A stretch of 64,000 nt of DNA, from positions 248,001 through 312,000 of the forward strand of contig QPGO01000107.1 in NCBI GenBank assembly GCA_008632985.1. Direction: 5' to 3'. Below are positions 11,491 through 56,899 of this stretch, piece by piece. The DNA is from Psammoneis japonica. Lineage: Eukaryota. A program made the translations under genes and the position numbers. The notes beneath the pieces were generated by a model. The model saw only the letters and a list, made by a program, of their open reading frames with translations, did no database searches and had not been told where the DNA came from. Positions within the stretch are counted from its first letter, which is position 1, and every line of letters starts with the position of its first letter.

Positions 11491-11491
11491 T

Positions 11492-14400
11492 GCCCTACTC
11501 TGTACGTGTAAGGAGTACGTCGAGCATTCTCTCGAGCGTTATTTTTATTTATGATTTCTTGTTTTCGCTGCTGGATTAATTTCCAATCTGCGACATGTTG
11601 GACGTTAAGAGGGCGGTCCAGAGATCGCCTGGTACACTTTTTACGTAAAAACTACCAGAGAGCCAATCACGTACATTCCTACACAGACGCAGTACAAAAC
11701 AGAAAGCATGGCACTCCATCACGCGACCTCACGACGACACCACCTGACGACAACGCATCAAAATGGCGTCGTCCGCATCTTTCTGCAGCTCCTCTTTCAC
11801 TTACCCGATTGCTCCAAAAGGGCCAGGGGAAGCTAACAAGCTTTCTCTTATAATAGAGCAATGTAAACAAAAGTTGTTTTTTATTCCAAAATCTCAGAAC
11901 ACAGTGCAACCGATTGTCAAGGCGAACTCGCACGTTGGCGGCAACAACACCAGTTGATGTTCACTCTAGAACAACAATGGAGACGTGACACCCCAATAAA
12001 ATAAAGTCTATACCCCCATGATAAATTTTAAAGCTAGCTCTTCTTGTTGGCATACAATCTTTAGCTGCTTTTTAGACTTGACAAAATGATCATCTGTCCC
12101 GGCTGTCACCCTCTGAGTTTGTTGCATTGGCTGACAAATTGGGCAAGTGAGCCACACATTTCTAGCTTGTGAACTACCTTGCAGCCAAAAGAAGCAATCT
12201 AAACCTTCAGAACAGCCATGATGCACTGGTCTGCCGAATCAAACTCCGCATCACCAAGTGGAGGCGGGGAGAACCATTGTCAAAAATGCACTGTGACGGA
12301 TCTGAGCTCTTGAGAGCTTGTCCAGCTTTTGACACCATGGCCCCAAGTCACCATGTTTATTGTGAAGTCAGCCTGATGCTGTGTCTGTGACTTTGCCTCG
12401 TTTTGGAATTGCCACGGCCATCGCATTGCAGAACTGACATTCTTGACGAGGAAAAGTGTTTCTGGGACACCTTGCGACGACGGAGACCCTGCAGAACAAA
12501 AGAACAATGTAGAAAGAGACAACACATGTAAGTCAAACGGGTGTTAATGTACAAAGCCTCAACGAAACACACAGCATGAATGGTGATGCATGAGGTCGGT
12601 CGTGATGCAACAGAAGCGATGCTGTCAACGCGAACCTTCAGTGAGAATTTTCGCCATCAGCCACCCATGTGAACCTGTGTGCTCTCGAGCTCATCACATG
12701 CCTTGTGCTGTGACGTAAGATGTTCCATTGAGAGTACACTGCAAAGCACCTCAGAAACAACCGCATTTTTGAAATCGGCGAAACGCCATTGTCCGTGTTA
12801 TTTTGCGTGTTGTTTTGCGTCGCGAGCCAGAAAACACTCCCAAAAACTGTTCTGCAGGGCAAAATGCACTGAATCTACACAGATTTGGGTTGTGCCAGGC
12901 CATGTAGAAAATGAACGGGCCGAGAACTGTGGCACGCCCACTCAAACATCATGTCTTCATTGAAGACCAGTTGTCCTGGTGTGGCTTGCGCAGCAGTGTG
13001 ATGCGCAGAACGCACCGCAAATGCCGCTGCTGATGGTGTTCCAGCGAAAGCATCCTCAGTGTCCAGAGGTGCATGTTGCAAATCAAATGTGCGGAGCATG
13101 TTCCCCAGCACTTGATGCATGCGTTCAACAATTGCGTTTGCTTGTGGATTTCGTGCAGTCACAGGCTTGACTTTAATGCCACAATCATCTTGCACCATTT
13201 CTCTAAATTGGTGTCCGATGAACTCACTTCCATGGTCATGTGCAATTGACGATGGCCAAGGACATCCACTTGACCATGTTCATTCTAGCAGTCCAGCTGC
13301 AGTCATGGATTCCTTGTTTGGGATTTCCACAACTTCAAACCATCCGGTTGCTGGATCGATCATTGTCAAACATTTCAGGACCAGGGGTTCTTTCTTTCCC
13401 TTGCGACGCATTTTGTATGGCCCAACAAGGTCCACACACAGTCGTTCCCATGGTGCGGATTCTGCGCACTCAGGAGGTAAATGTCCATGTTTCTTGTGTT
13501 TCTTTTTGAATTTTTGGCACGTCTCACATCTCAACACGTATTTTCGTATGTCTTCACGCAAGGTGGACCACCACAGGTGTTGTGAGATTGTTTCTTCTGT
13601 TTGATTTATGCCAGGGTGAAGAAGGTGCGCATGATGCCAATCTGTCACTGCCTTTTGCAACGTCCTTGGGATGACAATTTTGTCCTTGTGACACATGAGC
13701 AACCGGTCTCACTCGCCTCCACGAAAAGTCTTCGTGTGAAACGTTTTGTTTGACAATTGGGAGAGAATGTCTTTGTCCCGTTTTTGTCCACAATCAAGAA
13801 CTTTGTAATTTAACGGAAAGACATTGTCACAGGATTTTGGCAGGACCTTTTCAGCTGGCTCTTCTGTGCTGAGGGTTTCCACAGGTTCTATTTTTTTCAC
13901 AGCAATTCGGCTGATCGCATCTGCGACAACATTCGCCTTGCCCTCAAGGTGTGTTGTGTTGGGACTGCATTCTTCCATCATCAGACGCCAACGCATGACT
14001 CTGTCCGTTGTGAAATTTTCATGTGTGAGATTCTTGTGATCCGCACACATGTTCATCTGTTGGCCAAACAGCACATTTCGGAACTCTTTTAACGTCTCCA
14101 CTGTGGACAATGGCTCTTTTTCCGTTGTGGCACAATGCGTCTGTGCTCCATTCAGCTTGCGGCTGTAGAAGGCAATTGGTCGGTTTTTCTGTGTAACAAC
14201 CGCCCCCAATTGAGAATCACTCGCATCAGCACACATCTCAAAGGGCACATTGAAATTCGGGTGTGATGACAGCACATCTTTGGAGACAATGCGCTTCACA
14301 TTTTCGAAGGCTTTTTGTTCTGTTTCGGTCCATTGCCACTTAACTTGCGTAGAAGTGAGCTTGGCTAAAGGAGCTAAAACATGAGATCGTCGAGGCCACA

Positions 14401-15870
14401 TGTCTCAACAGTGGTTGATCACACCGACAAAGCGTCGCAATTCCTTGCGAGTTTTGGGAGTTGCGATCGCGTGAATCGCTTCCACCTTTTTTGGAATCGG
14501 ACTGATGCCCTTGCGGGTGATGTGAAAGCCCAGACAGTCTGCTTCGGGTTTAGCAAAAAAGGACTTCTCGGCATTGACCTTCAATCCGGCTTGTTCCAGG
14601 CGTAAAAACACCGTTTCAAGCTTCTTGAGATGGTCTTGAAAATCACCTTTTGTAAGACACAATGTGTCGTCAACATGAGTTCTGACGAACTCCAGACCTG
14701 CCATGAGCTCATTCATGTGCTCTTGGAAAACATCTGGAGCTCCACAGATTCCCATGGGGAGTCTACAGTGCTCACATTTGCCCCAAGGCATGACGATCAT
14801 GCACAAGCGACGTGCATGTGGCGTCAATTCGACATGATGGCATCCCATGTTTAAATCTGGGGATGTTGCATGCATGAAACCTTCAAGTTTCTGTGGCATG
14901 TCCTGAACATTGGGCAGAGGAAACGGAGCACGCATCAACCTCTCACTCAACTCTCGAAAGTCGGACAGAAATCGGACTCGACCATTTTTCTTTGGTTGAA
15001 TGAAGGTTGGAGCTGCCCATTCAGAACAATTTGTTTTTCTTAAGACCTTTAACTTGCATGGTCTTTCAACCTCTTTGCGAGCAGTTGCCTCCAAGGCTTG
15101 TGGTGCGGGAAATGGTTTGGCATGATGCGGACTCACGCCCGATTTCAACTTTAAATCCACCGGTTTCCCGGTCCATTTGCCCAGAGAACCATCGAAAAGG
15201 TTTTCAAATCTTTTTAAGAGGAAGTTCAGCTGCTTCTGTTCTTCAGGAGTTAGATGAGCAGCTGCTGCAGTCACATTGTTGAGGTTTGCAGCATGACAGT
15301 CTGAGTCAAGGATCCGATTGACCCTGTCAATGAGACCAATCACTGCATGAGATTCCTCAATGTGATCGGCAATCAACTTAAAAACATCGGCATCGAAGAG
15401 TGCATCGACATTCTTCATGGGAGCAGTTGCATCTTCCCATTTAATCTCTTCATTCGAGAAGTCCAACATTGTCCCAAGACTTGACATTAAGTCGCGTCCC
15501 ATGATCATGTCATGATGACTCAAAGAAGAAGGGGGGCTGTCAACATGCACCGTTGTTTCGATCATCTCATGTTTGTCAAATTCGGGTGAGGAGAATTGGA
15601 TTTTACATTGACCACCAGTCGTAAAGAGCCCTCCTTTGGTTTCCCAGAGTTTGGTGGCGGATTCTTTGGTTCTGAGTTTCCGTGTGAATTTGCGCAAAAT
15701 TGTGGTTGACGATGTTCCGCTGTCGAGGAGAACGCGCAGAGGCTCATTTTTCGCTTTGCCCAATGAAGTGTTCATGCAGGCGACGACCACTGGACTGGCA
15801 TGGATTGCTTTGGCCCTTTTTCTGGGCTTCCTAACATCCAGCAGAGCGCAAGACTCCTCTTGCGGTGCAA
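11492..15870 (-). pseudogene. pol: Gypsy-1 pol (protease, RT, RNase H, integrase)
   Basis: LLDSGTS, WAAPTF..KKNG..RF..DFR, HVDD (from YVDD), ADASD..LGAV..AFYSRKL, HLLHPG..CETCQ, VDLVGP, NPQANAIVERMH. In-frame stops present. Confidence 0.92.
11609..12943. mobile_element. ~1.3 kb non-autonomous insertion inside the Gypsy-1 integrase
   Basis: Removing it rejoins LVFNEDMMF|NVQHVADWKLIQQRKQ. Ends GAGGGCGGTCC / reverse complement GAGTGGGCGTGCC; AA is duplicated. Confidence 0.7.
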
Positions 15871-15871
15871 G

Positions 15872-17030
15872 TCATTCCTCAGAATCACTGCGCGTCATTT
15901 TTTCAAACTGATGATTCTCCTCATCAAGGGTGTCAGAATCACAATCTTTGCTCTTGCGCTTTTTGTCATTGTTCGAGGAACTCGCTTTGAGCATTTTTTG
16001 AACTGCTTGGATCGCCACAGCATTCAACTCTTCTTTGCGAGCAGCGTCATCGTTGTTGCGACGAGACCACGTGCGATTGCCATTTGAACAGTGCCATTTT
16101 GGGTCGGGTTCACAGTTCCCACGGCGTTCTTTTGCAAGTCTTTTGATCAACCAGCACTTGTCTGTGTTGTGAGTGGATTTCTTGCATGAAATGCACCACT
16201 TCTTGGACTGAGATTTTTTGGTGCCATGTTGGTGACCATTTTTGGAACCATGTTTGGAACCACTCTTGGCTTTTGATGCAGTGCCGCCACTGCCATCAGC
16301 CTTGGCATGAATGCCATCGAACATGTCCTCTGCGACCTCTGGGCGCTCCAAAAACTCAACCAACTCGTCACAAAATTTCGAAACCCTGGACGGTCGACTG
16401 ACGCTGCCACTTTCGAGGTGCAAGATTGAAGAGGATGTCCTTGAGCTCGTCCTCCTCGATCTTCTGTTCCTTCCCAAAGGGAGGATAGAACTTGAGATCT
16501 TTGTTGACTTCCTGGACCCAAGCAGCAATTTTGCGCACTTTCATGGACTCCGGCTTCTTGAGATCACGACGCAAATAACGTTTCTGCACCGAAAGTGCGT
16601 TCTTGGGAAACACATGCCTCGTGAGATGCTGCAGGCATTTCTCGAAGCTTCCTTCCACAGATTCGTCTTCAAGGTTCGCTGCCACATTCTCGAAAGCACG
16701 TAGAGCGTCTCCTTGGAGTGACACACGCATGAGGCGGAACTTGTCGGATTGCTTCCTGACATTCTGGCCCACTGGAAGTTGATCGTAGCTCTTGAGAAAT
16801 TCGATGAACTTGGGGACACCTTGCTTCTTGCAGTGCTCGACATTGATGGTGCAGGTGCGGCTGTCCTTCTTCTTGGGATGAAAACGTTGCTCCATCTTGA
16901 GGCACTGGCTCGGTTTGAGGCTCTTTGGCTCGGAACTCGATTCCAGCAGTTGAGGAACGATTTTCTCCTGCCTCAACAAAGTTTTGGCATTGGTTGCTTG
17001 AGGTGAAAGCTTCATCTTGAACTTGTTGCC
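15872..17030 (-). pseudogene. gag: Gypsy-1 gag
   Basis: ORFs 16368-17078 and 15872-16528 linked by a frameshift: VFPKNALSVQKRYLRR, zinc knuckle CISCKKSTHNTDKC. Confidence 0.85.
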
Positions 17031-17051
17031 TTCTGTGGTGTGCATGCACAA

Positions 17052-17430
17052 TGCACCATGCTCAAAGAACAAGTGCAAACGAAAGTAGAACGAAGTTCAA
17101 AAAGTGAAAATTGTGAGAATTATTTCTGCGCAATCATTTTGGGTTTCTCAGAACGGGTTCTCAATGGCCTAAACCTTTTGCACTGCTCCTGCAGACAAAA
17201 GGCCTTTTGGAGAATGTGATCGTGACAACAGATTGTCCAGATGCGATTGACATTGACACACAAGATGTCAACATCATCGCACGATTGCATTTGCGATTCT
17301 CGACATCCGATCACTTCTGTGTGATCGATCTGTGCTTCGTGCGAACCCACGATTGACGTACGATTGAAATGTGCTTTTGTTTAATGTGCAGATGTGCATG
17401 TGCGACACGTGCATGACAACGCACATTGCA
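17052..17430 (-). repeat. Gypsy-1 5' LTR (379 bp)
   Basis: TGCA...TGCA termini; homologous to 11133-11490 and to the Gypsy-2 LTRs. Confidence 0.92.
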
Positions 17431-33143: not shown

Positions 33144-34418
33144 TTAGTCACCAGCACCTTCATCGCTATCCTCCTCGTCGTCCTCCAAGGCATTTTCGAA
33201 TTGTTCTCTAAGATATCGCAGGTCAATCGACAAATCTTCAATCTCACCATCTTCAATCCCATCCAGCAAATACGGACGATTCCCGCCCACCTGTGTTTCC
33301 TTCGTGACCTTGTACAATACCCCTGCGTACGGAATGGTGATTGCATATGATGCCGGGGCGACACTCTCGTTAGCAGGGCAACGGCGCCACTGGTCGAGAT
33401 TGACACCCACGAGTCGGTCACAACGGTGCTCAAGAAAATCATTCTTGTGGTCATCAGAGAGATCAATGGACCCAAAACTGACGGCATCAACAACTGAAAT
33501 GTCGTTGGACGACGGACTTTCCTTTCCCCACAACACAATAGCAGCTTCATAGTCTTTGTTGTCATCTGGCTCATAAAACTTGGCCGCAAGAAACAATCTT
33601 GTGTAATTGTCACTCAGGTACTTTTTTCCGCGTTGGCGAACTTCAACCGGGTCTCTATTCTTGTATTCGACCTCCCAAATCAATCGTGAGTATGGCAGAC
33701 CCTTCTTGCACTTATCCATGTCTCGTCCTGCACGGTCCCTGAATTTCTTTCTCGGATAGATGGATTTGTCCGGCTGGAAGTGCCCGTAACCACCCGAGCT
33801 TTGCCCTGTGGCAAAGTATTTTTGTAAAATAGGAAACCGACGTCTCCAAACCCCAAAGAGATCAGCGAACGCCCCGTCGATACTTCCGTGTTCCGGTCCA
33901 GGCATGTACGTGATGAACAGAGCGGCACCGTTCTTGGAGTCCGCAAGTCCGCGAACGAGCAAAAATCGAGCAGGAACCATGTCCTCGGTTGGTTCCCAAT
34001 CCTCGCTTACTCCTGTAGCAACAAGTACCACCGAAGGTTCTACTGTGGTTGTTTTCGTTCCCGCTGTGGTAGCCTTGCCTCCTCGTGCTCTCCCTCCATA
34101 ACGATTACCGAATTCCACGAACGCCTCCTGAAACTGCTTGGGTGGTACCTTGCCGTTTTGTGAGACGTAGTGTTTGTAGCTTGGGCCAGGCGTCAAGTAG
34201 GACATTTTCGATCGCTCTTCTTCTTGCTGAACCCATTTCTTCGCTTCCTCTTGCAGCCCGAAGGCAGCGTCCGCCGAATTTTGCAGCACAGTACTTTCAC
34301 TTGCTCTGGTGTCGCAATGTCCATTCTCACCCCCGCATATCTGATTCTGTACCTTTTGACGCTTGTTCAAGTGAGATACTCCTGTTGACGTGGATTCTGG
34401 TTGAGCAAGCGAGGTCAT
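33144..34418 (-). CDS. Uma2-like PD-(D/E)XK restriction-endonuclease-fold protein, intact and intronless
   Basis: 424 aa: ITYMPGPEHG..FQPDKSIYP..PYSRLIWEVEYKN..KKYL. Normal Tyr content. Confidence 0.68.
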   Translation of the reverse strand: MTSLAQPESTSTGVSHLNKRQKVQNQICGGENGHCDTRASESTVLQNSADAAFGLQEEAKKWVQQEEERSKMSYLTPGPSYKHYVSQNGKVPPKQFQEAFVEFGNRYGGRARGGKATTAGTKTTTVEPSVVLVATGVSEDWEPTEDMVPARFLLVRGLADSKNGAALFITYMPGPEHGSIDGAFADLFGVWRRRFPILQKYFATGQSSGGYGHFQPDKSIYPRKKFRDRAGRDMDKCKKGLPYSRLIWEVEYKNRDPVEVRQRGKKYLSDNYTRLFLAAKFYEPDDNKDYEAAIVLWGKESPSSNDISVVDAVSFGSIDLSDDHKNDFLEHRCDRLVGVNLDQWRRCPANESVAPASYAITIPYAGVLYKVTKETQVGGNRPYLLDGIEDGEIEDLSIDLRYLREQFENALEDDEEDSDEGAGD

Positions 34419-35071
34419 TTTGGTGCTCTTGTTGCGCTACCAGCATTGCTTCTTCCATCTGTTTTGGTTTTGTCGATGATGATTTCTTTCGTTGCGAGTT
34501 GCGAAAGGAGAAAGGAGAGAGGAACCGCTTCCAGCTTTGTTTGTTGTCGAGCAGAACGGGGGATGGACAGACGGGTTCTCTCCCGTGCGCGCGCGCGGCG
34601 CTATCGCTGCTACCGGTAGCCATGCCATCCATGCAGCAGCGCAGCCACACTCTCCATCGTGAGTCTATGCGTCGACCGTTCTTCGCGCGCGCGCTCGCAC
34701 GCACCCGAAGGTCTCCTCATAGACTCTCGCGGAAGTAAGACGGACGATGTACCAGGGTCGTATGTAGGCCGTTTGTTACGGTGCCGTTTTTCCGGAATAG
34801 ATTTGGCAACTTTCAGAAGAAGTAACCCGAAAGTTCTGTGAAAGTTGATGCAAACATGGCATCACATGTCTGTGTGCACACACAACCTTGAACCGCGCCA
34901 GAATTTTTACATCATCAGATTCACCACCACCCGCAAGACTTCTGCGACACCGTGCTAAAGTTCGAGACTCTAGAGACACGGCACGGAGGAGACTGTCGTC
35001 TCACAAAAAAAGCAGACGCAGCCACACAGCTGTCACAGAAGCCACCCGCAACAACAGAGCAGCCGCGCAGC

Positions 35072-38000
35072 ATGCCCACTTCGACCCTTGAGGCACCAAT
35101 CATGAAGGCGTCTAGGGCGCCTTCTGCCATGAGTGGCGACAAGTCTGCAATCAAAACGTTTGACGCGTTTCAAGACAAAAAACAAGACAAGCCGTTTCAT
35201 GGATTGGAGGAACGTCATGTGGATGGATGCCACCTCAGGACACTTGTGATGCGCTCCAGCAAGTTCTTGTCGGGTGAGCCCATCTGTCGGCACGACAATC
35301 CCTCCAACGGGCTAGTGGGAATTGACGGAAAGCAGCGAATTTTTGGAAAGGTCAAAGAAGCGCTGAAAATGAAATTCCCCAAGCACCCTGATTGGGAAGA
35401 CGAGGACAAGTGGCACAAGCCTCTGTTCAAAGATGTGGCAAAGGCCACTGACAAAGCCAACCTCCTCAGCATGGAGCTGCACTGTGCTCGAAGAACGAGT
35501 GTAAACGAAAGTAGAGTGGTGCACGAAAAGTGGAAATTATAAGATTGAATTTTGCTCTGTGATTTTTGGTTTCTCCGAACGAGTTCTCAATGGCCCAAAG
35601 CTTCTGCACTGCTTCTACAGACAAAAGGCCTTTCGGAGAATACATTCGTGACAACAGATTGTCTGGATACGATTGCTGTTGACACGTAAGATGTCAACAT
35701 CGTCAATCGATCGTATTTGCAATTCTCGACATCCGATCAACTCTGTGTGATCGTTCTGTCCTTTGTGCGCATCCACGACTGTGGTGCGATTGACACGCAA
35801 ACAACACATGATCACAAATGTGTGTGCAACAGTCGCACGCTGCATTCGCCTCCCTGATTGCACATTAGAGTCATTTGTAAGTGGATTGTTCGACGGACAT
35901 CGACAGTGTCAACAATGTCTCCACTTTCACTGCATTGTGCCATTGGCAATGACTGTTGTTGTTTTGCATGGGCAATGTGGGGCCGTTCCAATTTCCGAAT
36001 GTCTTTTGAGAGTGACATTGTTTGTTTCTCACTTAACATGCATGTGCACAGCATTACGTCGAGCATTCTCATTGACGTTCTTGTTGACATGAACACAAGG
36101 ACTAATTGTCCTGGAGTGAGTGTTTTTCCTGACATCGATTGCACATGGCATCGTGCCCAGCACTTAATGTGCGCTCTTAATTGTGGCGTTCACTTGCTCA
36201 CTTGTGGATTTCATGTAGTTTGGCGGGCTCACTTTGTGTGCCGTGTTGCTCTGCTGCACTGCCACGTTTCATAAGCAATGACAAACGATGGTCAAAGATG
36301 TTGTGACCATTTCGTCTTGACAATCAATCCTGTGATGGTCACGAATTCCATTGTGGATTTTTTTTTTTTTTGTGCTTCAACCATCCATCAGTTGGATTTT
36401 AATCGTCATTTGGACGTTTCTTTCTGACATGCCGGTGTCATTTTGTCATTCCGAAGGCACTGGTTTCGTGCACTGAGTGGGTGAATGTCCATTTTTCTTT
36501 TCTTTTTCTAGATCTTTGGCACATCTCGTGTGTCGACATGATGCACATTTTAATGTCTTGCCTCGTACATTGTACAATGCAACCGCACGGGTGTTGTGAG
36601 ATTGTCTTTTGCCAGTGTGAAGTGGACACGTACAATGTGTGCCAATCTGTCACTGTTTTTTCCTAAATCGTCCTTTAAAAAGGCGATTTTATCCTTGTGA
36701 CATGAGCATTTTTTCGATCTCGCTCGCCTCCACGAAAAGTGTTCGTATGATGTGTCGCGTCCGACAATTTGGAGGGAATGTCTTTGTCCCGTTTTAACGG
36801 CAGGACATTGTCGTGGGATTCAATTTTCCACAGTGAGTCGGCTGATCGCGTCTGTCGCGACGATGTTCGCCTTGCCCTCGTTGTGCTCTAATTCGGGACT
36901 GAAGTTGTCAACGCATGACTTTGTCCGTTGTGTCTTGTGATCCGTGTGTGCACAAATCTGTTGGCCGAACAGCATGTTTCGGAATTTTATGAGTGTTTTC
37001 ACTGTGGACAGAAGTTCTTTTTTCCGTTGTAACGCACAACATTGAAATCCGTGCATGATGACAACATGGTTTTTGATTTGATGCGCTCCACATTTTCGGA
37101 GACTTTTCGTTCCGCACTTGTGCTTTTGCCGTTTGACCTTTGTTGAGGTGAATTTGGCCAGCATTGCACAGGAGATTGTTGAGACTGCATGTCTCGACAA
37201 CAGTGACGTATGACAACGAGATGTCGCAGTGTTCTTTACGTTTTTCTCGTGTTGCGATTGCTTGAATCGCCTCCATTTTCTCTGCAATCGATTGCATGTC
37301 GTTACGTGTGGAAGTCTTGACAGTTCATTTCAAGTTAAACAGTGAAGGACTTTTGTTGTTGGCCTTCCAAGCGACTGTTCTAGTCGTTTGAATGCCGCAC
37401 TGAGCTGTCACTTGCACAGGTGACATTTTGAAGTTGCTTTTGTCAGGCACAAACGATCACACACAGTCATTCTGACAACTTCAAACCTGTCATGAGTTCA
37501 CTCAAGTGTTGCACAAAAACATCTGGGGCTCCACAGATTCTCATTGGAAGTCCACAGTGCTCATTTTCTCCCCACGGCATGATTTTCGTGTGAGCACGAC
37601 GTGTGCTTTTTTATTTGACATGGTGGCATTCCATGTTTGAATCAAATGGATTGCACACATGAAACGTTCTTGCTTCAACAGCATTTCCTGAACATTGGGT
37701 AAAGGATGCACCACCTGCACGAACCTTGTGCCAAGCTTCTGAGTGTTGGATGCGGTCGAACTCGACCTGTTTTCTTTGGACAATGAGTCTCAGAGCAACT
37801 TGTTCAGAGCAACTTCATTCTTAAGACTTCAATCTTTCACAACAGGTCAAACTCCTTTTGATTGGACGCCTCCAAAGACTGTGACAGGAGAAGGTTCTCA
37901 TGCGTCGTGGAATCGCGTCAGATTTTCCACGATGAGATCCACTGATGCTTCCCATGCATTCGTCTGAGGAACTTTTCAAAACGATTTCAACCTCTTAAGA

Positions 38001-41000
38001 AGAAGATTGAGTTGGTTGTGTTCATTTGGGTCAGATGCATCGCCGCAGTTGTCACTTGATTGAGATCGATGGCGTGATGATGTGAGTCAAGGACCATTGG
38101 TTCCGTTGTCAACTCTGTTCACGGCGTCACATTTTTCAATGTGATCGGTTTTCAGCTTGAAAACATCGGCATCGAAGAGTGCATGAACATTCTTCATAAG
38201 GCAATTGCTTCTTCCCATTAGATTTCTTCATTTGCGTAGTCCAATGTGACTTGCAGGACTGGACATTAAGTTGCGTCCCATGATCATGTCATTTGAACCT
38301 GAAGAAAATTTGGTGTTTTCAACATGTGATGTTTGAATGTCAGCATGCCTTAAATTTTGCACAGTGAGAACTGAATTCGGTGTTTGCTGTCAGTCGTAAA
38401 GAGCTCACCCTTGGTTTCCCAAGTTTTTGGTGGCGGATTCTTGTGTTCTCAACTTTCGCACGAATTTGCGCAAAATTGTGGTTGACGATGTTCCGTCATC
38501 GACAGGAACACGTAGATGCTTTTTTTTTTCTCCTTTCCCAAGGAAGTGTTCATGTGAATGATGACTCCTGGACCAGTGTGAATTATTTCTGCCTTTTTTC
38601 TAGGCTTCCTAACATCCAGCAAAGCACATGATTCGTGAACAGACCAAAATTGTTCTTCGGATTCAGTCTGGATCATCCGATCAAATTGGCATTTTCCTTC
38701 ACTGAGGGCATCAGAATCTGATTCTTTGCCCTTGTGCTCTTTTTCTTTGTTCAAGGAACTCGCTTTGAGCATTTTTTGAACCACCTGATCAATCATGACG
38801 TTCATCTCTTTTTTTGCGAGCGGCATTTTCGTCATCGCGACGCGACCGCGTGCGATTGCCATTTGAACGGCGCATTTTTGGGTCTCTTTCAGAGTCACCC
38901 TTGCACTCTTTTGCTGGTTCATTTTTAGAACAGCTTCAATCCGTGATGCAGGTATTCTTTTTTCAAAGATGAGACCTTGCATTCACTTTGGATTGTTCTG
39001 GTGCCATGTGGGAGACCATTTTTGGAACCAAATTTGGAACCTTTTTTATTTTGGAACCAACTGCGCTGTCAGAGCCTGAGTTGACATGTTTTTTCGTCAC
39101 GGACGTCATGAACGACCTTTAGATGACTCAAAACTTAATCAGCTCATCAAGGATGAGTTGCAACAGTTGATTGTTTTGGACAGTAGACTGATGCTGCCAT
39201 CCTTGCGGTGCGAGTGACAGCTGATAAATCAGCGCTCGGTTTCCCGCTAGATTCGACTTAGAATCCATCTGAGGGTCGCACAGACTCTCATCGTTGACCT
39301 CTTGGGTCTAACAGAGGCTTTCTCGCTGTCAAGCAGCTCTGGTTTCTTCAGGTCGTCTCGAAAATAATTTCCCTGATTCTGAAGTGCATTTCCTCGGAGG
39401 ACATGAGTTGTGAGACGCTTGAGGCACTTTCCAACGATTCCCTCTTGCTCCTTGGACTCGAGGATCATCGATTCGGTCTCAAAAAACTCTCCAATAGTCT
39501 CTCCTTGCATGGTAGACGCATTTCTCGGATCTGATCGACTCGGAACTTGCATTCTCTGCAACCATGACTTGGTGTAGATTTTTTGACAATGCGGTGCACT
39601 TGAGAGCCCTTGATCCTTGGGTGCTTGGAATGGACCGTGTTAAAGCGAATCCTCTTGTCTGGTAGACGAAAAACAGCGTTCCATCTTGAGGCACTGCTCG
39701 GCTTGAGCTTCTTCTGCTCGGAAATCGATTCCAGCAGAACTGATGCGATTCGTTCCTGTTCATAGAAGAATTTGCAAAGGCACATTAGTTAAAATTTTCA
39801 TTTTCCGTGCTTTTTACCTTCTGTGGTGTGTATACACAATGCACCATGCTCGAAGAACGAGTGTAAACGAAAGTAGAATAGTGCACGAAAAGTGGAAATT
39901 ATAAGATTGAATTTTGCTCTGTGATTTTTGGTTTCTCCGAACGAGTTCTCAATGGCCTAAAGCTTCTGCACTGCTTCTACAGACAAAAGGCCTTTCGGAG
40001 AATATATTCGTGACAACAGATTGTCCGGATACGATTGCTATTGACACGTAAGATGTCAACATCGTCAATCGATCGTATTTGCAATTCTCGACATCCGATC
40101 AACTCTGTGTGATCGTTCTGTCCTTTGTACGCATCCACGACTGTGGTGCGATTGACATGTAAATAACATGTGGTCATAAATATGTATATAACAGTCGCAC
40201 ACTGCAGAGCATTCTGACAAAAGGACTTTGCCCCTGGTTCCAAACGTGTCTTCAGAACATGTTCGAGCCAAGCAGCGAAATGCCATTCTTACGTCAGATG
40301 GAAATTCAATGTTGAGACGCGAGAATGGTGCACTCGCAAACGACATCGAGACGTTGCTTCTTGCTCTTGTTCTGCAATGCAATTGTCCAATGATGAATGA
40401 TGGCCCTCTTCAGCAGCGTTGCTGGATTTTGATGGGTGCTGTGGCTGCTGGACGTGGAGGGGAAGTGAGGTGTCAACGATGTGATGAATGGTTCTGGGAT
40501 TTATTTTATGAGAATTTGGAAGCAACGTGGTGTGAGCCGAAGACTGTGGATTTGTGTGGACTCCTCTTCCCACCAAACAAAAAGTCTTGTCTCTTTGATC
40601 TCTGCCATGCTTTCGCGTGTTTCCATTCTTGTGAGAAAGGTCTCTGTCGTCCAGACGGCATGGAGAAGGAGCTCCACAAGTGCACTTTTCCAGACTTGTG
40701 GAGCGTGAGCGACAAGCATGTTGCCGCCAAGTTGACGTCTGTCATTCGAAGCAAGGTCAACCCGGTTCTGCAGAACGATTGTTCTTCCAAGTCCATTCGA
40801 GTTGGCATGGCTACATTCTTGAATTCGCATCGAGGAGTGTCAGTTGAAGAAGCGGACGCTCGAGTTGGATGGGCACCCGGAGCTGCCAATGGCAAGACAT
40901 GCAAACGAATTGCACCGCAGCTTGCTCTTCCAGCAGCAAACGCAATGATGGGCTGGGATGACACCGCCGGCAAAAAATTTGCGCCAAACTTGGAATGCCT

Positions 41001-42387
41001 TGGCAGCCATGTACAAGACGACGTTGAACGTCTCATTGAAAAATTACACATGATCTCTGACTCCCTTGCTCAATTTCTAAAAGGTGGGGAGCTGCGGCCC
41101 TTCTTGCGTTCCTGCACGGCTGCTGTGATTCGGCATCACGCTGAAGTTTCAAAGGAGCTTCGTCAGAACCATCAAATCGTGTGCACCTTGGAGCGTGCTG
41201 CGAAGGAAGCGAAGATTCGTGATGGCGACACCACTGACACGTCACAAGTTCTTCGAATCTGGGGATCGAGAATGGGCGCAAGCTTTCGAGACCGCAATCC
41301 AGACCTGTCGAGCGAGATGAACCTTGCTGCACAACTGAAACAGCAGAATGAACTGTTGACATGTGTGTTGTCGGCATGTGACGCTCAACGCACCGAGATT
41401 GCAGATCAGTCTCAGACCCTTCGTAACATGGAGATGGCTCAGCTTGAGGCCAACCGGTCCAGCAGGAAAAGGCCCATTGAACTCCTGTCATCAGATGAGG
41501 AGGAAGGCAGCACGATGGATTTGGCGGATGGGTCAAAATCCAATCAAGACGACATGATCGATGGTGACGTCATTGTTGATGCAAACGTCGCCTCCACTCC
41601 AAACGGTGCGGCTGCCAACTCTGTGAGAACACCAGATGCTGCTGATGACGCGCCGGCTGCTTCTCGACCTCGCATTGATTCTGACGAGTCAGCGGCTGCG
41701 ACTGAGCCTGTGGCGGCCTCGGCGCCAAAGCCAAAACCTCGCATTGCCGCAACGCCACTCTCAACACAGTTTGCAAGCACTGAGTCTTCAAAGAAGAAGA
41801 AGAAAAAGAAGCTGACACTGCAGGAGAAAGTGGATGGCTTGGTGAGTGGTGCAGGTGCAGGAGTGTCTTTGCATGTGTTGCTCACTTGGTTCAAGCAGCA
41901 TGGACACCTTTCATTGCCGTCCAAGGAGCGGCTTTTGCAGCTGCGGTTCCCGAACAAGGAGGCAGAGCCTCAGAAATTTAAAGCCGCTGTGAAGCTTCTG
42001 GAACACATTGTGACTGATGACCAGAGGCACACGATCCAACTTCATGACGACAAGTCCTTGGCTTTTCACAATGTTTGTCATGCCATGCAAAATGCATGCC
42101 TGGACACGACGAGGAAGATGGAAGTAGACGCCGGCATGAAAAAGCCACTGGAGAACAAGAAGAAGGAACGAACTCAGCCTCACTTTGTAGGTCTTGGTCT
42201 TCGAGTTATAACGTGCAAGAAAAAGCAGAACACATCATCCATCGGCAAGAAGCAAACGAGCGCCTTGGCAGGATTTGTGAAGAAGGTTGCATCCAAAGCC
42301 ACCGGCACCAGTCCCAAAAAACCCGTGAACCCATGTGCAAAGAAGCAGGCCAAAGTAAAACATGTGTCAAGTCATTGTGTGTCATAG
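35072..42387 (+). pseudogene. Tyrosine recombinase (Crypton-like), 860 aa when Gypsy-2 is removed
   Basis: ...LLSME|HSDKRTLPLVPN rejoins in frame (35072-35477 + 40211-42387). GRGGE, SSKSIRVGMAT, ARVGW..KTCKR (expected nucleophile Tyr reads Cys, TGC 40900-02). Confidence 0.8.
35478..40206 (-). mobile_element. Ty3/Gypsy LTR retrotransposon (Gypsy-2), internally degenerate
   Basis: 367-bp LTRs 35478-35844 and 39840-40206, 4-bp TSD GAGC, PPT-like AATCAGGGAGGCGAA next to the 3' LTR, and an interior collinear with Gypsy-1 (KELLSTV..HTDHK..GKANIV.DAISR). Confidence 0.95.
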
Positions 42388-42763
42388 TCCGAATAGAAGC
42401 TCACACTGCAGAAATGTCTGTTTCAAATTTAGCACCGTGCAACTGCTGTGCGTCCGGTCGATTCAGACGAAGCAAGTGTGCTTTTCTCTCTGACGACTCC
42501 AAAAATGTGCCAATCATCATGATGTAAGTAGACCAAGGTAAAATGCATGCACAGTGAAAGAAACTGTGCATTTCAAATTTGGTTTAGTGCAACGACCAGT
42601 CGATTCGGATGAACAAGTTGAAAGTGCTTTTTTTTGCTGACAACTCTAGAACTTGTCTTCATCACGACACAAGCAGGCCAAAGTAAAATGCAACTGGGTA
42701 AAGTAAAATGCACATCAAGTGATTGGGCGCTGCAGTGTGTTTGTAGAACCATCTGTTTCTGTT

Positions 42764-43507
42764 TCAAATTTCACTCAATGCAACGACTGTACATCCGGCA
42801 GATTCGGACGAAGCAAGCACCTTTTTCGCCAACAACTCTGACACTTGCCAATCATCTTGATGCAACATTGTGTTCAAGCTGTCCAAAACAAACTTGCAGA
42901 GATTGTCAACATCTCCTGCATCCTTGAGACTCTTCCCAGGAAAAGCAAATTCAATCCGAGCCTTCAACAAGACACCGTCACGGAACTTTGGTGCTGAATC
43001 TAGTCTGGATCGGCAGAGAGCTGATGCCACACTTGCAAACTCTTTCTCATCAGCTTGGTTTGGATTGCAAACATTTCCATTCCACCCACGCTTTGGTCTT
43101 GACTTTGGCATTGGCTTTCCGACAACGTCAAATTCAATCGAAGATCCGGTGCATGAAAATGGGGGGGTGTCCGACACGGAGAATTTGGGCGATCGGATCT
43201 TTCGAGGATGCCCTCGTTTCTTCTTCCTTGATGGTTCACCTTTGCCAGCACTGCCAAATCTTGATGACGCTGGCAGGTTTGGAGCAATGGCCACGCTCTC
43301 GAAGTCTTTTCCATCTTCGTCGTCACTTGCGCTGTCTGCAACTGTTGCGTCGTCGGCAGTTCCTCCCTCAAAACTTCGCTTCTTAACCATTCTGCCATCC
43401 ATTGCACTGTTGGCATTCAGGAAACATCTCCACAGCATCCTCCACAGTGCAGCAGGAGAAAAGGCCTTTCGCGTGAGGATTCGCGTGCGACGGTGACATG
43501 TTTCCAT
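42764..43507 (-). CDS. rusA: RusA-family Holliday junction resolvase with an AT-hook-like motif
   Basis: FDVVGKPMPKSRP..IEFAFP..GDVDNLCKFVLDSLN..DDWQVSELLAKK matches RusA DxDNxxK..DD.QV; KKRGHPRK lies upstream. Open but mutated. Confidence 0.85.
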   Translation of the reverse strand: METCHRRTRILTRKAFSPAALWRMLWRCFLNANSAMDGRMVKKRSFEGGTADDATVADSASDDEDGKDFESVAIAPNLPASSRFGSAGKGEPSRKKKRGHPRKIRSPKFSVSDTPPFSCTGSSIEFDVVGKPMPKSRPKRGWNGNVCNPNQADEKEFASVASALCRSRLDSAPKFRDGVLLKARIEFAFPGKSLKDAGDVDNLCKFVLDSLNTMLHQDDWQVSELLAKKVLASSESAGCTVVALSEI

Positions 43508-46500
43508 CGCTCATCGCGTGAGCTTTCGTGTTTCGATTGATTTTTGATTTTTTTCAAATTTCAAGACGACTCAACGCACGACTTGACGCATGACTTAACG
43601 CACTCTCACGATTCACAGCCAAGATTCAATGGACGAACTTTTTTTCCTCCGCGCGCCCCCTCCATTTCCCAACTTTCAGCCGAAAGTTGGAGCGCTTCGC
43701 GCTCCAAAAGGGGGCAACTTTCGCCGAAAGTTCGCGCTGCGTGCGAAAGTTCAATTTTTCTGGACACATGCCGCAAGCGCATCGTCTCATTGCTGTCATC
43801 GGCATGAACTGCTCCCAAGGCTGTCCAGCACTGTAGAATGAATCTTTCACAGCATTGGGACGTTTCGAGCACACCACAACAAAGCCTGTAGTTGCATGAC
43901 TGCCACACAGCTCCTCATTCCATCATTCACAATCGGGTGTGTTGATCCTTTTCTCTCGGCTCGATCGCGACAGCCACACATCGAACCACGACCTGTGAAC
44001 TGTCACGCCAGGTCATTGAGCTGGCAGTCGCCCACCAGCAGTTGCCGTAGGAGGCCGAAAAGAGAAAGGAGGATGCAAGAAGTGAGAACATCTGTGACAC
44101 AGGATTCAAGAGAGGCAACAAAATTGGAAACATCAACGCAAAAAATGGAAATGTTCTCACCGGCAATTGATGCCAAGGAAGAGACACGACAGCACCACTG
44201 AGCACCGAGAGGTGCGCCAAAGAATGCCACTGAATCCCCACCAAGCCCATTAATCAGCCTGTGTTTTTGATCCACGCTACGTCTTAAAGTGGGAGATCTT
44301 GCTGGAGGCGAAAACAAAAACTGCAATTGTTGAGTTACAGAAGCAAATTATGAGCAAAATCACAACACCAACTCACCCAATTAACCTTTGCACACATTCT
44401 TTTGTGTCTCCTGTGTGCATGTGCTTGTTGCTGCAACGGCATTTGTCTCATGCCATTGCCAGAGGCATTCATGCCATCGCGAACTGATGAAATCCTGCGC
44501 GAAGCACAAGCCCCATTGAGTGAGTTTGAATGCCAACAATTAACAACATTGTCACATGATCTTACCTCCATGACTCAGTGTCACTAAATGAGCACAGCCA
44601 ATGTGCTCAAATCCACCCAAGTGGCAAGAAATCGACACAACCGTCCAAAAATCTCCAAAATTGTCATAAAACAGCGACGCCCAACCGAAATGAGACCCCA
44701 GACTGTCTTTGCCTCGAATCTCAGAGCTGTGGTCAAACCACGCCTCACATGGACACCAATGAACAACACCAAGGCATTGTGTGGACTGAGAACCTGCGTG
44801 ATGACGAGGAAGAGCCCAGTCCGTGAGTGAGCACATTTCTGGCAAAAAACATGAAGCCATTTGTTACGAACGACAGAAACAATGGTTGTGCCACAAGAAA
44901 GACAATGCCATTGCAAGGCAACAACGAAAATGTGCGTGAGTTTCCATGTCATAACTTGCAGGGCGCAACGGAGCGGAACATGCGACGACAATCAACGACA
45001 CATGTCAGCACCTGCCGAAAAAGTGACGATTTTGCACTTGGTCAGTCTCGGGGATAAATCAATCAAACATCCACCAATTTTCTCCGTTCCAACACCATGG
45101 CACGCTTCAACAGCGAGCATCCGAACAACCACTGAACGGTGCAAGGCATGGCGGTCGATGTGCCGATGAAATCGATCATCGTCGGAACGGCCCATTTTCT
45201 GGTGTGTTTTGTGTGGAAAGCTCTGTAGAGCATTTCGCCAAATCCAGGGAGGCATGGCAACAAATTTTGAGCCACCGTCCGTCTCACTTCCGTGAGAGTC
45301 TATGAGGAGACCTTCGGGTGCGTGCGAGCGCGCGCGTGAAGAACGGTCGACGCATGGACTCACGATGGAGAGTGGCGCAGCCAGGGCAGTGTACGCTGCT
45401 TCATGAGCGTCTCAACCAAATGTCTGTGGGTCAAAATGTGCTGAGCTGAGCCATTCTTCTGAAGTTGCTGACAAAGAGAAATGACATGACAGTTTTGTGC
45501 AAAGAAATGTGTGGCCGAACACAAGAAAAACAACGATGAAAATGACAGCTGCATCACATGAGTCGAGCAGAGAAAAATGCCGGGACAAAACATTTTCTTG
45601 CCCAGCCTGTGCGGAAAAAATTGGCAAGATCTGTTTGGTCATGTGAACAGATTGCTGCTGATGCAGTGGCAGTTCTCATCATTTTTTTTGTTGTGGCATC
45701 ATTTGTCAGATGAGAAGACACACAACAAGGCAGCGAGCTGTCATGGAAAAGCAAAATGCCAAGATGCCAGCGGTGGCTCCCACTGAAAATCATGCAAGCA
45801 ATGAGGAGATGAGTGCCAATGAAGGCAGAGGAGCAGAGATTGCAGCCACTCCCAAGTCACTGGTTGTTGGATGCAGGACAAGCCATCAACTTTGTGGCCA
45901 GTTTGTTGGATGATCAAAAAAGGAGATTTGGAATGTCAAATTTGTTTGGGGCACCCAGAGACACAACCACGTGTCAAGCTGAGGGACAAGATGATGTCAA
46001 TTCAGGCAAAGGGAAGGATCTGACAAAAAAGATTTGAAAAGTGATTGAAGGCAGGAAAGAAGAAGAAGAAGAAGAAGAGCGCAAAGACAGTTGAATCCAA
46101 CAAGAGACCTTTTCAGTCAGAAGAGGCTCAGGAAAAACATGTGAAGTTGAGTGAATGTTTTGGTGAGTTGGCCACAACTCCAGATGTCAAGCAAGAGTTG
46201 TTGGTGTTTTTGTCAAATTTCCTGGATGATGTGGTTGTCAAAGATCATGTGTTGACACCAACAAACAGAGACAGCATTGTCGTGGGTTTTGTTGTCAACA
46301 AACTCAAATTGAAAGTTAGAGAAGAGCACAAACAGAATCTGGGTTGGGCAGAAGACACAAAGATGAAGAGTGTGAAGAAAAAGTCATCCCAAGTGGTGCC
46401 ATGCAAGAACCGCACTGGATGTTCATGCTCAAGAAAGAGGAAAGTTTTTCCCATTGGGGTGAGATGGTGGCAAGTTGGTTGAAAGAAAGCAAAGCAGTTT

Positions 46501-54156: not shown

Positions 54157-55396
54157 TTACCAATCGGAACAACATTCACACACTTCTCTCGCAACAGCCG
54201 CAAAGTATCCTCCCTTGCACTTGCCATCCATTCGGGGACATGCCAAACAATGCGCCGCTGCAAACTCTCTCAGCGACAACAAAGTCTTTTGTTCAATATC
54301 TTTTATTCGCAAGTCGTCCAACTCTCTTGTGACGTTGGCGGTTACGGAAATGTTACCATCGATGTATTTTCTCACTCCGACTGGTTGATAATCCCATATA
54401 TATTCCTTGGCTTGAGATTTGGTCGTGTTGTCCCAAAGGACGCTGTTCAAACTCTGTGTGTAAGATCATGTTTCCGAGCAGAACACAACTCAAAACACAC
54501 ACCCAATCGACGACATTTACTCACCCATCCATCATGTCGGTTGCTTCTTCGTCCATGGCATTCATCACCGCTTGAGACGGAGGCAAAAACGGGACTATAT
54601 CCAAATAGTATTCGTACGAAGTTTGATTTACCTGTTTGTAAAAGGCCTTGGCAAATTTTGAATCTCCCGCCTTGGCCGAAGCAAACGTGACTACCTCCGT
54701 GACGTTGGGCAATTCCTCATCTTGATTTACCAGCATGGCAGCAATACTCGCCATGGCTCCACCCTTGCTGTGGCCCGTCATGAAAATCTTTATGGTATTA
54801 TTATTTGATTGCATGGCTTCCAAAATGTTGGACTTCATGGGTTTCCAAATGGATGTGACGGCCCGATAGAATCCCGAATGGAGTCTACCGGGCAAATTGG
54901 GAACGCGTTGCAATCGCAGCGCGGCATTTTGAAGCCAATCGAGTGGCGATACCGTCACTGTCCCACGAAAGGCCAATACTAGACCATCGCATGTTTCTCC
55001 CAGTAACACGGAATTGACACTCTTGGTGATACGTATCGTGGTAGTTTCAGGTAAGTAACCGGCGGCTTCAAAGTACGGAGGAACTGGATTGTAGGCACAT
55101 TGCGAGGCGCACAAGAGTCGGCCATCCAACGTCTTGGCGACAATTGAGTCGTCGTCGTCCGCGATTTCCTCCTGCACCATGAGGTGTGTCTCTACAATGC
55201 CGGTAGCGCCGGTGTCATTGACTACATCATCTACCCAAGTTTCGTTAGTGTTTAAAGACGACAACAATCGAGTTGGAAGAATGAATGGCGCTCTTCTAGT
55301 CGGAAGAATGCATGTCCTCCTCGATTTTTGTACACCGGAACATGTAAAAGCATCTGCTACAGCGACAACGGTTATAAAGTGGAATGCTCGAGTCAT
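54157..55396 (-). CDS. Class-3 lipase (alpha/beta hydrolase), 2 exons (intron 54443-54524)
   Basis: Signal peptide with ADAF, VLAFRGT, LHSGF, TGHSKGGA, VTFASAKAGD, DIVPFLPP. A GTGAGT...CAG intron joins MMDG|VLWDN. Confidence 0.9.
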
Positions 55397-56899
55397 TTTA
55401 CTTGTTTGACAAACGAAGCTTCAAGGAAGGCGTTGAGTGTTGATTGCTGCATGCCGGTTCCGGCACCACCGATGTGCAATGTGCAGCCAGAGTTCATTGC
55501 TCATCGGCCGGACCATACCTCCCAAGCCGGGAGTGGGACCATACCTACCCGTACCCGGGGAACGGATAAGCTGGCAAAAAAATGAGGATGACGTCACTCA
55601 CAGTGCTCGCAGAGCGAGCTACAGTCTGCTCGCGTTAACATATACTGGGGGTACATACGGTTTTTTAGTATATGTTATAGAGAGGGTATATTATGTTATT
55701 CCAGTCTCGTACAAAAGTACGTATATTTACCACGTACGTAGAATAAGTACCAAGATTTACGTAGCTTGAAATCTTGCGCTTCTCCCTCACGACTCACGAC
55801 GCTTTGGGGCCATGTTCGCGCGGCCACCACTGTATTTTTTGAAAAAACTCATGACCTGCCTTCATCAATTCTTTGGTCCTGCTAGGTACAAGGAAGCCCA
55901 GGACCACTTCTTAGAGTTAAATAATGGTCAACAAGGGTGTCTACAGTTGTTGTAAGTGTAGTCTTAATGGTTTCATCGCCTCAAACTAGTCGTATCACGG
56001 ATTCGCAAAATGGTCTGTCGGTCTGTCAGGCTGTCTGTTTACAGGAAAGTCTGACCTTCGTCCGAGGGGTCAGGCCGGATTTTTTAGTGTGCGTTATAGA
56101 GAGAGTATATGTTAAAAAGTGTGTGTTAGAGCGAGCAGACTGTACTCTCTACTCTAGAGCTAGAGAGGGCCCCACTCTCTAGAGTAGAGAGTAGAGTAGA
56201 GAGAGAATGGTGGCAGCTGCTCTCTGCTCCCTAGAGAGAGAGACTGCAGCTGCTGCAGTCTCTAGCATGACAGTGCGCGAACATGTTGTGTTGTCTGCCT
56301 GCGGGTTGGGGCATCGTCAACAAAATGTTTCAACTGTCATTTTCAGCGACAAGTTGTTGGTTGTTGAACCCATCTTCACTGGGCTCATTCTCTCCCAGAG
56401 TCGAGTGGGTGAAAGGTTGCAAGCAGGACCAAGTGGCTCTGGTGCCCCTGTGCTTTTTTGCCAAGCACTCCTGTCAACACCCATGCTGGTCATTTGGCTG
56501 GCCAGCTCCTCCATCAGCACCGTTGCACTGTGTCCATTGTGTGACTCCCCTCCCTTGTTGCCAAGGATGTCTCTCTTTGTTGGACAGTGCAGTTGTTGAT
56601 GGGTTGAAGATTGCTGTGTCCATTGCATGTGGTGGCAACAGCTTGTCCTCTGCCAGACATGAGCACATTTGGGAGCACAGCAATTGGTCAGAGTTTGTTG
56701 TGGGCTTGATGGACTGGGGTGTGTGCGCTCTGCAAGCAAGAGATGTGTGTCTGTGGTCACACTGGCTTGTGACTTGTTGTCAACAGACAAGACTGTTTGT
56801 TGGCATGGCCCAGCCAGCCTGTGCTTCTGTGTTTCTTGTCAGCACCCAGCCAATGGAGAATGAACAGGGCTGTGCAGCCAAATGCTTGCATTGCAAACC

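Follow-up and report, generated by a model that had tools for sequence, protein, structure and literature searches.

Cryptons are the least understood of the eukaryotic DNA transposons, and their mechanism has been deduced by analogy only. According to the accessible part of the main Crypton survey (Kojima and Jurka 2011, PMC3212892), the CryptonS group is known from oomycetes and a diatom (Phaeodactylum) and has a conserved C-terminal region and termini with 5-6-bp repeats, mostly TATGG; Ndc10/Gcr1 and DUF3504 are derived from Cryptons, and known Cryptons can also carry a C48 peptidase. Here we analyze a 64,000-nucleotide stretch of Psammoneis japonica DNA (contig QPGO01000107.1), which we call the window and number from its first letter, and we propose, with a probability of about 0.72, that positions 34796-43765 are a decayed copy of a 4.2-kb Crypton-type transposon. 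Its two convergent genes would encode a tyrosine recombinase (YR) of ~850 residues and a nuclear-type RusA Holliday-junction resolvase of ~210-250 residues with an acidic tail and an AT-hook. An earlier note on this DNA had already suggested a two-gene eukaryotic transposon, and this idea is now supported by a discrete repeated unit, by subterminal motifs shared between its ends, by a form of the locus that lacks the unit and by a diverged 942-bp contig on which the two genes are linked. The view in that note that Cryptons encode the YR alone or with DNA-binding domains needs correction, given the C48 peptidase genes described in the accessible part of the survey (PMC3212892).

We compared the unit with the published description of CryptonS, as given in the accessible part of the survey, rather than with Repbase sequences. 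The unit is like CryptonS in being a DNA element with a single large (here putative) YR, no reverse transcriptase, no GCR1_C and a conserved C-terminal domain, in having short direct repeats at its ends and no inverted repeats of its own, and in its low to moderate copy number. As in some CryptonS a second gene is present, and an intact relative of the YR (P0162) is nearest to oomycete and diatom clusters. Unlike CryptonS, the second gene is a RusA and not a C48 peptidase, and arrays of a heptamer lie inside both ends. The unit differs from DIRS, Ngaro and PAT in that it contains neither a reverse transcriptase nor any long terminal or inverted repeats that are its own. Fungal Starships are likewise mobilised by a YR and carry further genes, and circular intermediates have been reported for them in the available part of a preprint (bioRxiv 10.64898/2026.09.21.753150); as far as these sources describe them, they differ in size (tens to hundreds of kb versus 4.2 kb) and in carrying variable cargo where the present unit has one fixed companion gene. 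The Starship captain family, DUF3435, gave no match in 10 YR proteins at E values up to 1, and is approached by language-model likeness only (0.92).

The earlier note had called the pairing possibly undescribed, and we agree: a search of the full-text literature, subscription journals and Repbase Reports excepted, found no paper on a Crypton or other YR element with a RusA in a eukaryote; the papers that came up were either unrelated or had the terms in separate contexts, and the word "resolvase" does not occur in the accessible part of the main Crypton survey (PMC3212892). The combination of YR and RusA is apparently new for eukaryotic YR elements, as we could not find it described, while the Crypton-type element itself belongs to a known class.

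The unit and its ends

The unit is delimited by a 10-bp direct repeat, TTTTTCCGGA at 34787-34796 (+) on the left and TTTTTCTGGA at 43755-43764 (+) on the right, the two copies being identical at 9 of 10 positions with the consensus TTTTTCYGGA. A 10-mer match of this kind could be chance, and it is a contig from a public DNA run, X1, that defines the boundaries. Contigs of this run, which shares 41% of the sampled words of the stretch, were aligned to 40207-46500 (6.3 kb); of the other DNA runs, X2 gave contigs covering 19 of 30 bins and X3 gave none. In one X1 contig the alignment starts at 43766 and extends to the right; the last 30 nucleotides of the unaligned part to its left are found once in the window, at 34766-34795. 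The contig reads ...TTTTTCCGG and then 43766 onward, that is, one copy of the repeat is kept and exactly 34796-43765 is gone. Because this contig joins 34766-34795 directly to 43766, the locus also exists in a form that lacks the unit; another copy of the surrounding repeat is without it. The unit proper runs from about 34796, since the left part of the joined contig stops at 34795, to about 43765. It spans 8,970 bp, or 4,237 bp once a nested retrotransposon is subtracted, which bears out the ~4.2-kb unit bounded by a 10-bp direct repeat that had been described from the letters, and the same contig is a candidate for the empty site that the note had suggested looking for.

Just inside the unit ends lie two arrays of the heptamer GAAAGTT/AACTTTC. 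The left subterminal array (34805-34846) has three heptamers and includes the exact 10-mers GGCAACTTTC and CCGAAAGTTC, which are shared with the right end; the right array (43671-43751) has five, two as near-palindromes of the form AACTTTC-n3-GAAAGTT. Over the whole window the heptamer shows no enrichment (20 matches versus 15.9 expected), and 8 of these 20 matches are concentrated at the unit ends, three in the 39 bp of 34808-34846 and five in the 81 bp of 43671-43751. A repeat search found no other repeat pair at the ends besides the 10-bp direct repeat and the heptamers. Another sequence, CAACTTTCAG, was considered as the terminal 10-bp repeat and rejected, as it is an internal heptamer site and not a terminus. 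Within the 4,237 bp, the open reading frames (ORFs) are those of the YR and the RusA only; remnants of reverse transcriptase and RNase H belong to the nested long terminal repeat (LTR) element.

The putative recombinase gene

The ORF list holds three long frames between 34.8 and 43.8 kb, at 34892-35542 (+), 40192-42387 (+) and 42764-43510 (-), and the two on the plus strand are the halves of a single YR gene interrupted by an LTR retrotransposon. Part 1 (35102-35477, +) encodes the N-terminal domain; its N-terminus aligns with the relatives P0159 and P0162 and it is collinear in the metagenome contig L001, and a further in-frame methionine lies upstream of the start, at 35072. Part 2 (40211-42387, +) encodes the catalytic region, a low-complexity linker and a C-terminal domain that is conserved among the relatives and in the window copy. 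Between the two parts, at 35478-40206 on the minus strand, is a degenerate Ty3/gypsy-type retrotransposon of ~4.7 kb that is foreign to the unit, as recognized from its LTR pair (35478-35844 and 39840-40206, 367 bp each, 94.3% identical, with TG..CA ends) and its 4-bp target duplication, GAGC, at 35474-35477 and 40207-40210. Inside, it is similar to the gypsy-type element at 11133-17370 and retains a trace of RNase H. The 367-bp repeat was also considered as a duplication within the YR gene, which is ruled out by its being the LTR pair. When the retrotransposon and one GAGC are excised in silico, the YR halves come into phase with 921 open codons, giving a protein of 861 residues from the first methionine or ~850 from the methionine that matches the relatives; L001 encodes a 38%-identical protein that spans both halves in the same order. 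The reconstruction of a gene of ~860 codons proposed in the earlier note is confirmed in this way. Since the retrotransposon sits within the YR gene, the Crypton insertion is older than this second LTR element.

A profile search of a large protein collection with the YR gave 16 relatives, several of them full length (763-824 residues) and none with a Pfam domain, from JGI, ENA or Logan sources. The spacing RxxE, 111-116 residues, [K/R]xxR, 24, W, 9-11, Y is kept in 10 of 10 YR relatives and is nearly identical to that of classical YRs such as Cre of phage P1, which acts on loxP (R173xxE176, 116, H289xxR292, 23, W315, 9, Y324, read for comparison); box II aligns as well, below statistical significance. 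In the 731-residue frame of part 2 the corresponding positions are RGGE at 88, KSIR at 200-203, GW at 227 and, at 237, a cysteine replacing the nucleophilic tyrosine. Unlike Cre, the protein has Lys or Arg in place of His289; its length is 2.5-fold that of Cre, with additional domains at both termini, and its proposed site consists of a 10-bp core and dispersed heptamers and not of a 13-8-13 arrangement. A language-model search with the intact relative P0162 ranked hypothetical proteins of oomycetes and diatoms nearest (scores 0.91-0.98, to be taken as leads only), and the same list includes NDC10_II/GCR1_C, DUF3435, DUF3504 and a cluster with Phage_integrase in 13% of its members. The sole hint from a family model is P0159 against Phage_int_SAM_5 (E 0.0052, under the cut-off). 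No YR relative was found among 22 pattern matches in viral_contigs or 54 in prokaryote genome_contigs, and a scan of metagenomes with the YR gave two short contigs only (2448 and 1751 bp), too small for a neighbouring gene. Because the fold model and family searches are uninformative, we call the protein a putative Crypton-type YR on motifs, spacing and language-model likeness, with no statistically significant match to a known YR.

The RusA resolvase

The third frame (42764-43510, -, 248 codons), convergent with the YR gene, is by Pfam, PDB profile and modelled fold a true RusA, and it is predicted to cleave Holliday junctions as a Mg-dependent dimer, as RusA does. The earlier note had read it as a convergent RusA ORF with an intact DxDNxxK..DD motif, and this reading is confirmed. 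Pfam PF05866 matches with an E value of 3.9e-9 (37.6 bits versus a curated cut-off of 22.8), and the ORF is laid out as an acidic N-terminus, a degenerate AT-hook or nuclear localization signal, KKKRGHPRK, and a RusA domain at residues 124-247 in which the motif DvDNlcK...DD is intact. A word-based protein search gave no matches among 520 candidates; an exhaustive protein search gave 512 relatives at E <= 1e-3, of which 61 reach E <= 1e-10. A profile of 52 sequences matches E. coli RusA (1q8r) at E 8.1e-8 and pairs DiDNLcK...DD with the DLDNLQK...DD of its RRRDLDNLQK..DD segment. In these 52 sequences D200, N203, K206, D210 and D219 never vary, and D202 and D220 hardly ever do. We take D200, D202, K206 and D219/D220 to be the counterparts of the catalytic Asp70, Asp72, Lys76 and Asp91 of E. 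coli RusA. The RusA domain is modelled by AlphaFold2 mostly at a predicted local distance difference test (pLDDT) score above 90, and Foldseek ranks 1-7 in PDB are all RusA chains (TM 0.64-0.75 on the target, E 1.4e-5 to 2.9e-4, identity ~20%).

The protein is thus like the RusA of E. coli and lambdoid prophages (1q8r, 2h8c, 2h8e) in Pfam family, fold and catalytic DxDNxxK..DD. It differs from E. coli RusA in the low identity, in ~120 extra N-terminal residues that include the acidic stretch and KKKRGHPRK, and in lying beside a YR in a eukaryotic nuclear repeat. An N-terminal extension is found in 47 of the 61 best relatives and an AT-hook-like motif, by our own pattern, in 18 of the 61; in the closest relatives the acidic stretch is followed by hooks of the KRGRGRPRK type. 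The cluster P0153/P0155 of RusA-like proteins contains a transcript from MMETSP and a sequence present on 28 contigs. From the extensions, the AT-hook-like motifs and the transcript, we conclude that a eukaryote-adapted RusA family exists.

Two RusA relatives, P0005 (435 residues) and P0024 (402 residues), have two tandem RusA domains with a basic linker before each, and these could be single-chain dimers of the normally homodimeric enzyme.

Linkage of the two genes

The unit belongs to repeated DNA. There are 690 X1 contigs at least 80% alike on 40207-46500 (158 at 99% or more, 192 at 95-99%, 201 at 90-95% and 139 under 90%). The summed depth of these contigs, not to be read as a copy number, ranges from 356 to 3533 as far as 45456, with ~850-920 over the catalytic part of the YR and 667-1036 over the RusA, and falls to 86-208 beyond 45457, where two near-identical contigs are at depth 70-73. 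The contrast in summed depth across ~45457 and the many diverged contigs indicate a repeat family. One 942-bp X1 contig, ~81% alike, runs from 41890-42401 (the 3' end of the YR gene) through a shortened, rearranged spacer to 42787 onward inside the RusA. As it bridges both 3' ends, it indicates that the two genes are linked in a diverged copy.

Outside this run, the YR relative P0162 and the RusA relative P0009 are both from Logan, each with a longest contig of 3467 bp, and the YR relative P0170 and the RusA relative P0020 are both from JGI, each with a longest contig of 2703 bp. The latter two both lack their N-termini, which is expected if convergent genes run off both ends of a contig. These are 2 exact size coincidences among 43 x 16 = 688 pairs, while a jitter control expects 0.16 (P(>=2) = 0.011). 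From these matching contig sizes, YR and RusA seem to have stayed paired in two other sources, in which YR identity is as low as 37-43%. Further RusA-bearing contigs are 2.2-4.1 kb long. The earlier note had proposed searching for co-occurrence of the two genes with the same ends, and co-occurrence is indicated by the diverged contig and, indirectly, by the two size-matched pairs; copies with the same ends in other flanks were not seen among the 12 of 156 loose ends listed.

These data bear on whether the RusA takes part in transposition at all. The unit could be a Crypton in which the RusA is a passenger acquired from a phage or bacterium, for instance as a selfish nuclease or an aid to host repair, and we regard this as rather unlikely. 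Classical YRs resolve their own junctions, and the large Atlas clusters nearest to the RusA ORF are phage RusA families (score 0.84, a lead only); other Cryptons carry accessory genes of no clear role, such as the C48 peptidase in the accessible part of the survey (PMC3212892). A passenger is harder to reconcile with a pairing that seems to persist in two other sources, with the N-terminal extensions and AT-hook-like motifs of the relatives, and with catalytic residues that are invariant in the 52 sequences. Because of this apparently persistent pairing, the N-terminal motifs and the invariant catalytic residues, we favour long-term selection on an active nuclease that travels with the YR. That the RusA is an ordinary host gene beside a Crypton remnant is very improbable. 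The MMETSP transcript in the P0153/P0155 cluster indicates that some members of the family are expressed in a marine protist; the window RusA, by contrast, lies within the segment missing from the joined contig, is covered at repeat depth by many diverged contigs, and shares the loss of TpA dinucleotides typical of the repeats (observed/expected ratio, O/E, 0.06 versus 0.53 in neighbouring host-like DNA).

The intergenic spacer between the YR and RusA stop codons (42388-42763) holds degenerate duplicates of the RusA 3' end and varies in length between copies. The segment 42412-42530 resembles 42753-42870, and tblastn finds a RusA remnant at 42438-42557. Over 42388-42870 as a whole, the degenerate tandem duplicates of the RusA 3' end form units ~150 and 340 bp apart, and X1 copies differ in this region: there are skips of 160 and 308 bp, and in one place a backward step of 149 bp.

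The surrounding inverted-repeat element

The Crypton unit is nested in an element, H (34648-45374), that has 102-bp terminal inverted repeats (TIRs; 34648-34749 and 45273-45374, 95% identical) and is flanked by a 7-bp direct repeat, GCGCAGC (34641-34647 and 45375-45381), as read directly from the flanks. The right part of H (43766-45374) ends in the right inverted repeat, and the repeated DNA stops at 45374-45440, as seen in the drop in depth. The similarity of at least 14 X1 contigs breaks off at 45374, 45375 or 45440, beyond which they carry unlike sequences (agreement 0.48-0.64). Since these contigs diverge at its right end in this way, H is itself a dispersed element.

The YR and RusA might instead be genes of H. 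The unit-free contig would in that case represent a non-autonomous form that arose by internal deletion between TTTTTCYGGA microhomologies, with TIR-GCGCAGC-TIR, the junction of the circle, serving as a lox-like YR site. Both the TIRs and the 7-bp repeat beside them are genuine, and inverted arms around a 7-bp core are the classical design of a YR site. Moreover, the summed depth runs on across 43765 (444, 510 and 581 in successive bins), and among the 12 of 156 loose ends listed none at 43765 comes from several contigs, as against the at least 14 contigs ending at 45374-45440. A random deletion, however, would not be expected to have matching GAAAGTT arrays, with two identical 10-mers, inside both breakpoints, and the 4.2-kb unit is filled exactly by the two genes and a leader of ~260 bp for each. 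Should the 3467-bp contig be common to P0162 and P0009, its non-coding part would be 533 bp, which leaves no room for a 1.7-kb arm. Contigs that share the TIRs also enter other interiors, with loose ends before 45274 and behind 43985, so that the TIR family exists without this interior. Because the heptamer arrays abut the breakpoints and TIR contigs have other interiors, we rank an origin as genes of H, which we hold to be improbable, below the Crypton-type unit.

Several observations nevertheless weigh against a Crypton-type unit. The unit-free form rests on one contig, and in view of the loose ends listed, with none from several contigs at 43765, copies of the unit in other flanks are not demonstrated. 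Matching contig sizes are only indirect evidence of linkage for P0162/P0009 and P0170/P0020. The 10-bp terminal repeat is not the 5-6-bp repeat given for CryptonS in the accessible part of the survey and contains no TATGG, and across the circle junction the innermost inverted heptamers would be 24 nt apart versus the 6-8-bp spacer of classical YRs. As for the recombinase, Pfam, PHROGs and NCBIfam gave nothing significant on 10 YR relatives, and Pfam is also blank for the window protein. There is no significant overall similarity to Cre: hhalign sets SSKSIRVG..ARVGW of the YR on SGHSARVG..AGGW of Cre (H289-R292..W315) at an E value of 0.11. Alignment to lambda Int gave nothing relevant, and a PDB profile search gave coiled-coil noise only. 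The structural check suggested in the earlier note accordingly succeeded for one protein only: the RusA model has the RusA fold, while the YR model is poor (mean pLDDT 54.9) and its Foldseek search of PDB found no match at E <= 0.001.

A hypothetical mechanism

We now put forward a hypothetical mechanism for the Crypton-type unit. By analogy with the Crypton model in the accessible part of the survey (PMC3212892), the YR would bind the GAAAGTT arrays and recombine both TTTTTCYGGA cores to form a circle, at whose junction the order would be right array, core, left array. Following what has been proposed for Cryptons, the YR would next insert the circle into a new target that has a similar core; in the present case the element may target one site in the resident inverted-repeat element. 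RusA, a structure-specific dimeric nuclease, would cut the four-way junction left by the first strand exchange or, alternatively, would act on branched products of recombination or replication or on multimers of the circle. Cutting by RusA would carry through reactions that the YR, acting by itself, completes inefficiently.

Heterology stalls classical YRs, and Xer reactions with a single exchange are known. By analogy, we suggest at a little under even odds that RusA resolves Holliday junctions that the YR would form but complete poorly at mismatched cores. The bolder proposal, which we put forward as doubtful, is that among the YR transposons of eukaryotes one lineage, found in several marine protists, has taken up a phage-type RusA as a second enzyme without which it cannot transpose. 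The YR would perform only the first exchange, at a short and imperfectly matched core, and RusA would cut the junction. If this were true, it would be the first recombinase-plus-resolvase, two-enzyme transposition pathway in eukaryotes.

A Crypton family with its own Holliday-junction resolvase would offer a direct handle on the Crypton mechanism, and it leads to the prediction that junction resolution, and not strand exchange, limits YR recombination of poorly matched sites. It would also show clearly how a eukaryotic mobile element can domesticate a nuclease from a phage or bacterium and provide it with nuclear DNA-binding motifs. The idea is testable, since public data from metagenomes and transcriptomes contain intact relatives, and a compact YR-resolvase pair with defined ends could interest tool builders.

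Decay of the window copy

Judged from its sequence, the window copy is inactive: it is split by the retrotransposon, its catalytic tyrosine is a cysteine, and it carries the marks of TpA hypermutation. The catalytic tyrosine, present in 14 of 14 aligned relatives, is replaced in the motif GKTCKRI, and the loss is general. The YR has one tyrosine in 861 residues versus 2.5-3.1% in relatives, and the RusA domain has none versus 2.3-3.8%. Of the 10 alignment columns where 60% of relatives or more have tyrosine, six are TGY (Cys) in the window, one of them the nucleophile position, three are CAY (His) and one is Val. The unit contains 37 TpA dinucleotides where 266 are expected, and the YR part, over all frames, has 5 TAA and 3 TAG versus 55 TGA. 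Hypermutation of this kind destroys TAA and TAG and creates none, which is why a dead YR frame split by a retrotransposon is still open.

Over the whole window, repeat-rich blocks have TpA O/E of 0.03-0.25 and TpG and CpA of 1.4-2.4, versus TpA of ~0.5 in host-like blocks. TpA-specific A>G/T>C hypermutation of foreign DNA is reported for Bigelowiella natans in the available part of a preprint (bioRxiv 10.64898/2026.01.13.699255), and the loss of TpA with gain of TpG/CpA is the long-term signature of such TpA-to-TpG/CpA hypermutation of foreign DNA, acting here on ordinary transposons.

The repeat-rich blocks lie at 12-33, 35-53 and 56-64 kb and the host-like ones at 1-11, 33-35 and 54-56 kb, and extreme TpA depletion is confined to the repeats. 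Tyrosine makes up 0-0.5% of transposon ORFs versus 2.2-4.4% of host-like ORFs. CpG is nearly gone (O/E 0.02-0.26) in some repeat blocks (30-32, 46-53 and 57-64 kb) and is kept at 0.7-1.0 in others, among which are the Crypton unit and both LTR elements; apparently two distinct processes of decay are at work, each on different repeats.

Surroundings of the unit

The window is eukaryotic nuclear DNA, with a dynamin-family ORF at 5703-6923, a class-3 lipase at 54521-55420 and remains of reverse transcriptase and RNase H at 13709-15871. An Rfam scan of 33-47 kb gave 0 matches. The LTR elements at 11133-17370 and 35478-40206 are related retrotransposons of the Ty3/gypsy type, with LTR pairs that are 94.7% and 94.3% identical, respectively. 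Without the unit, H is ~1.76 kb long with no evident ORF, and its TIRs start with CACTCTCC. It looks like a non-autonomous TIR transposon, and nowhere in the aligned stretch is the summed depth higher than in its right arm and TIR (up to 3533). About 200 bp outside the left inverted repeat, a 430-residue ORF (33144-34436, -) with no Pfam match, normal TpA and 4.4% tyrosine is probably a host gene.

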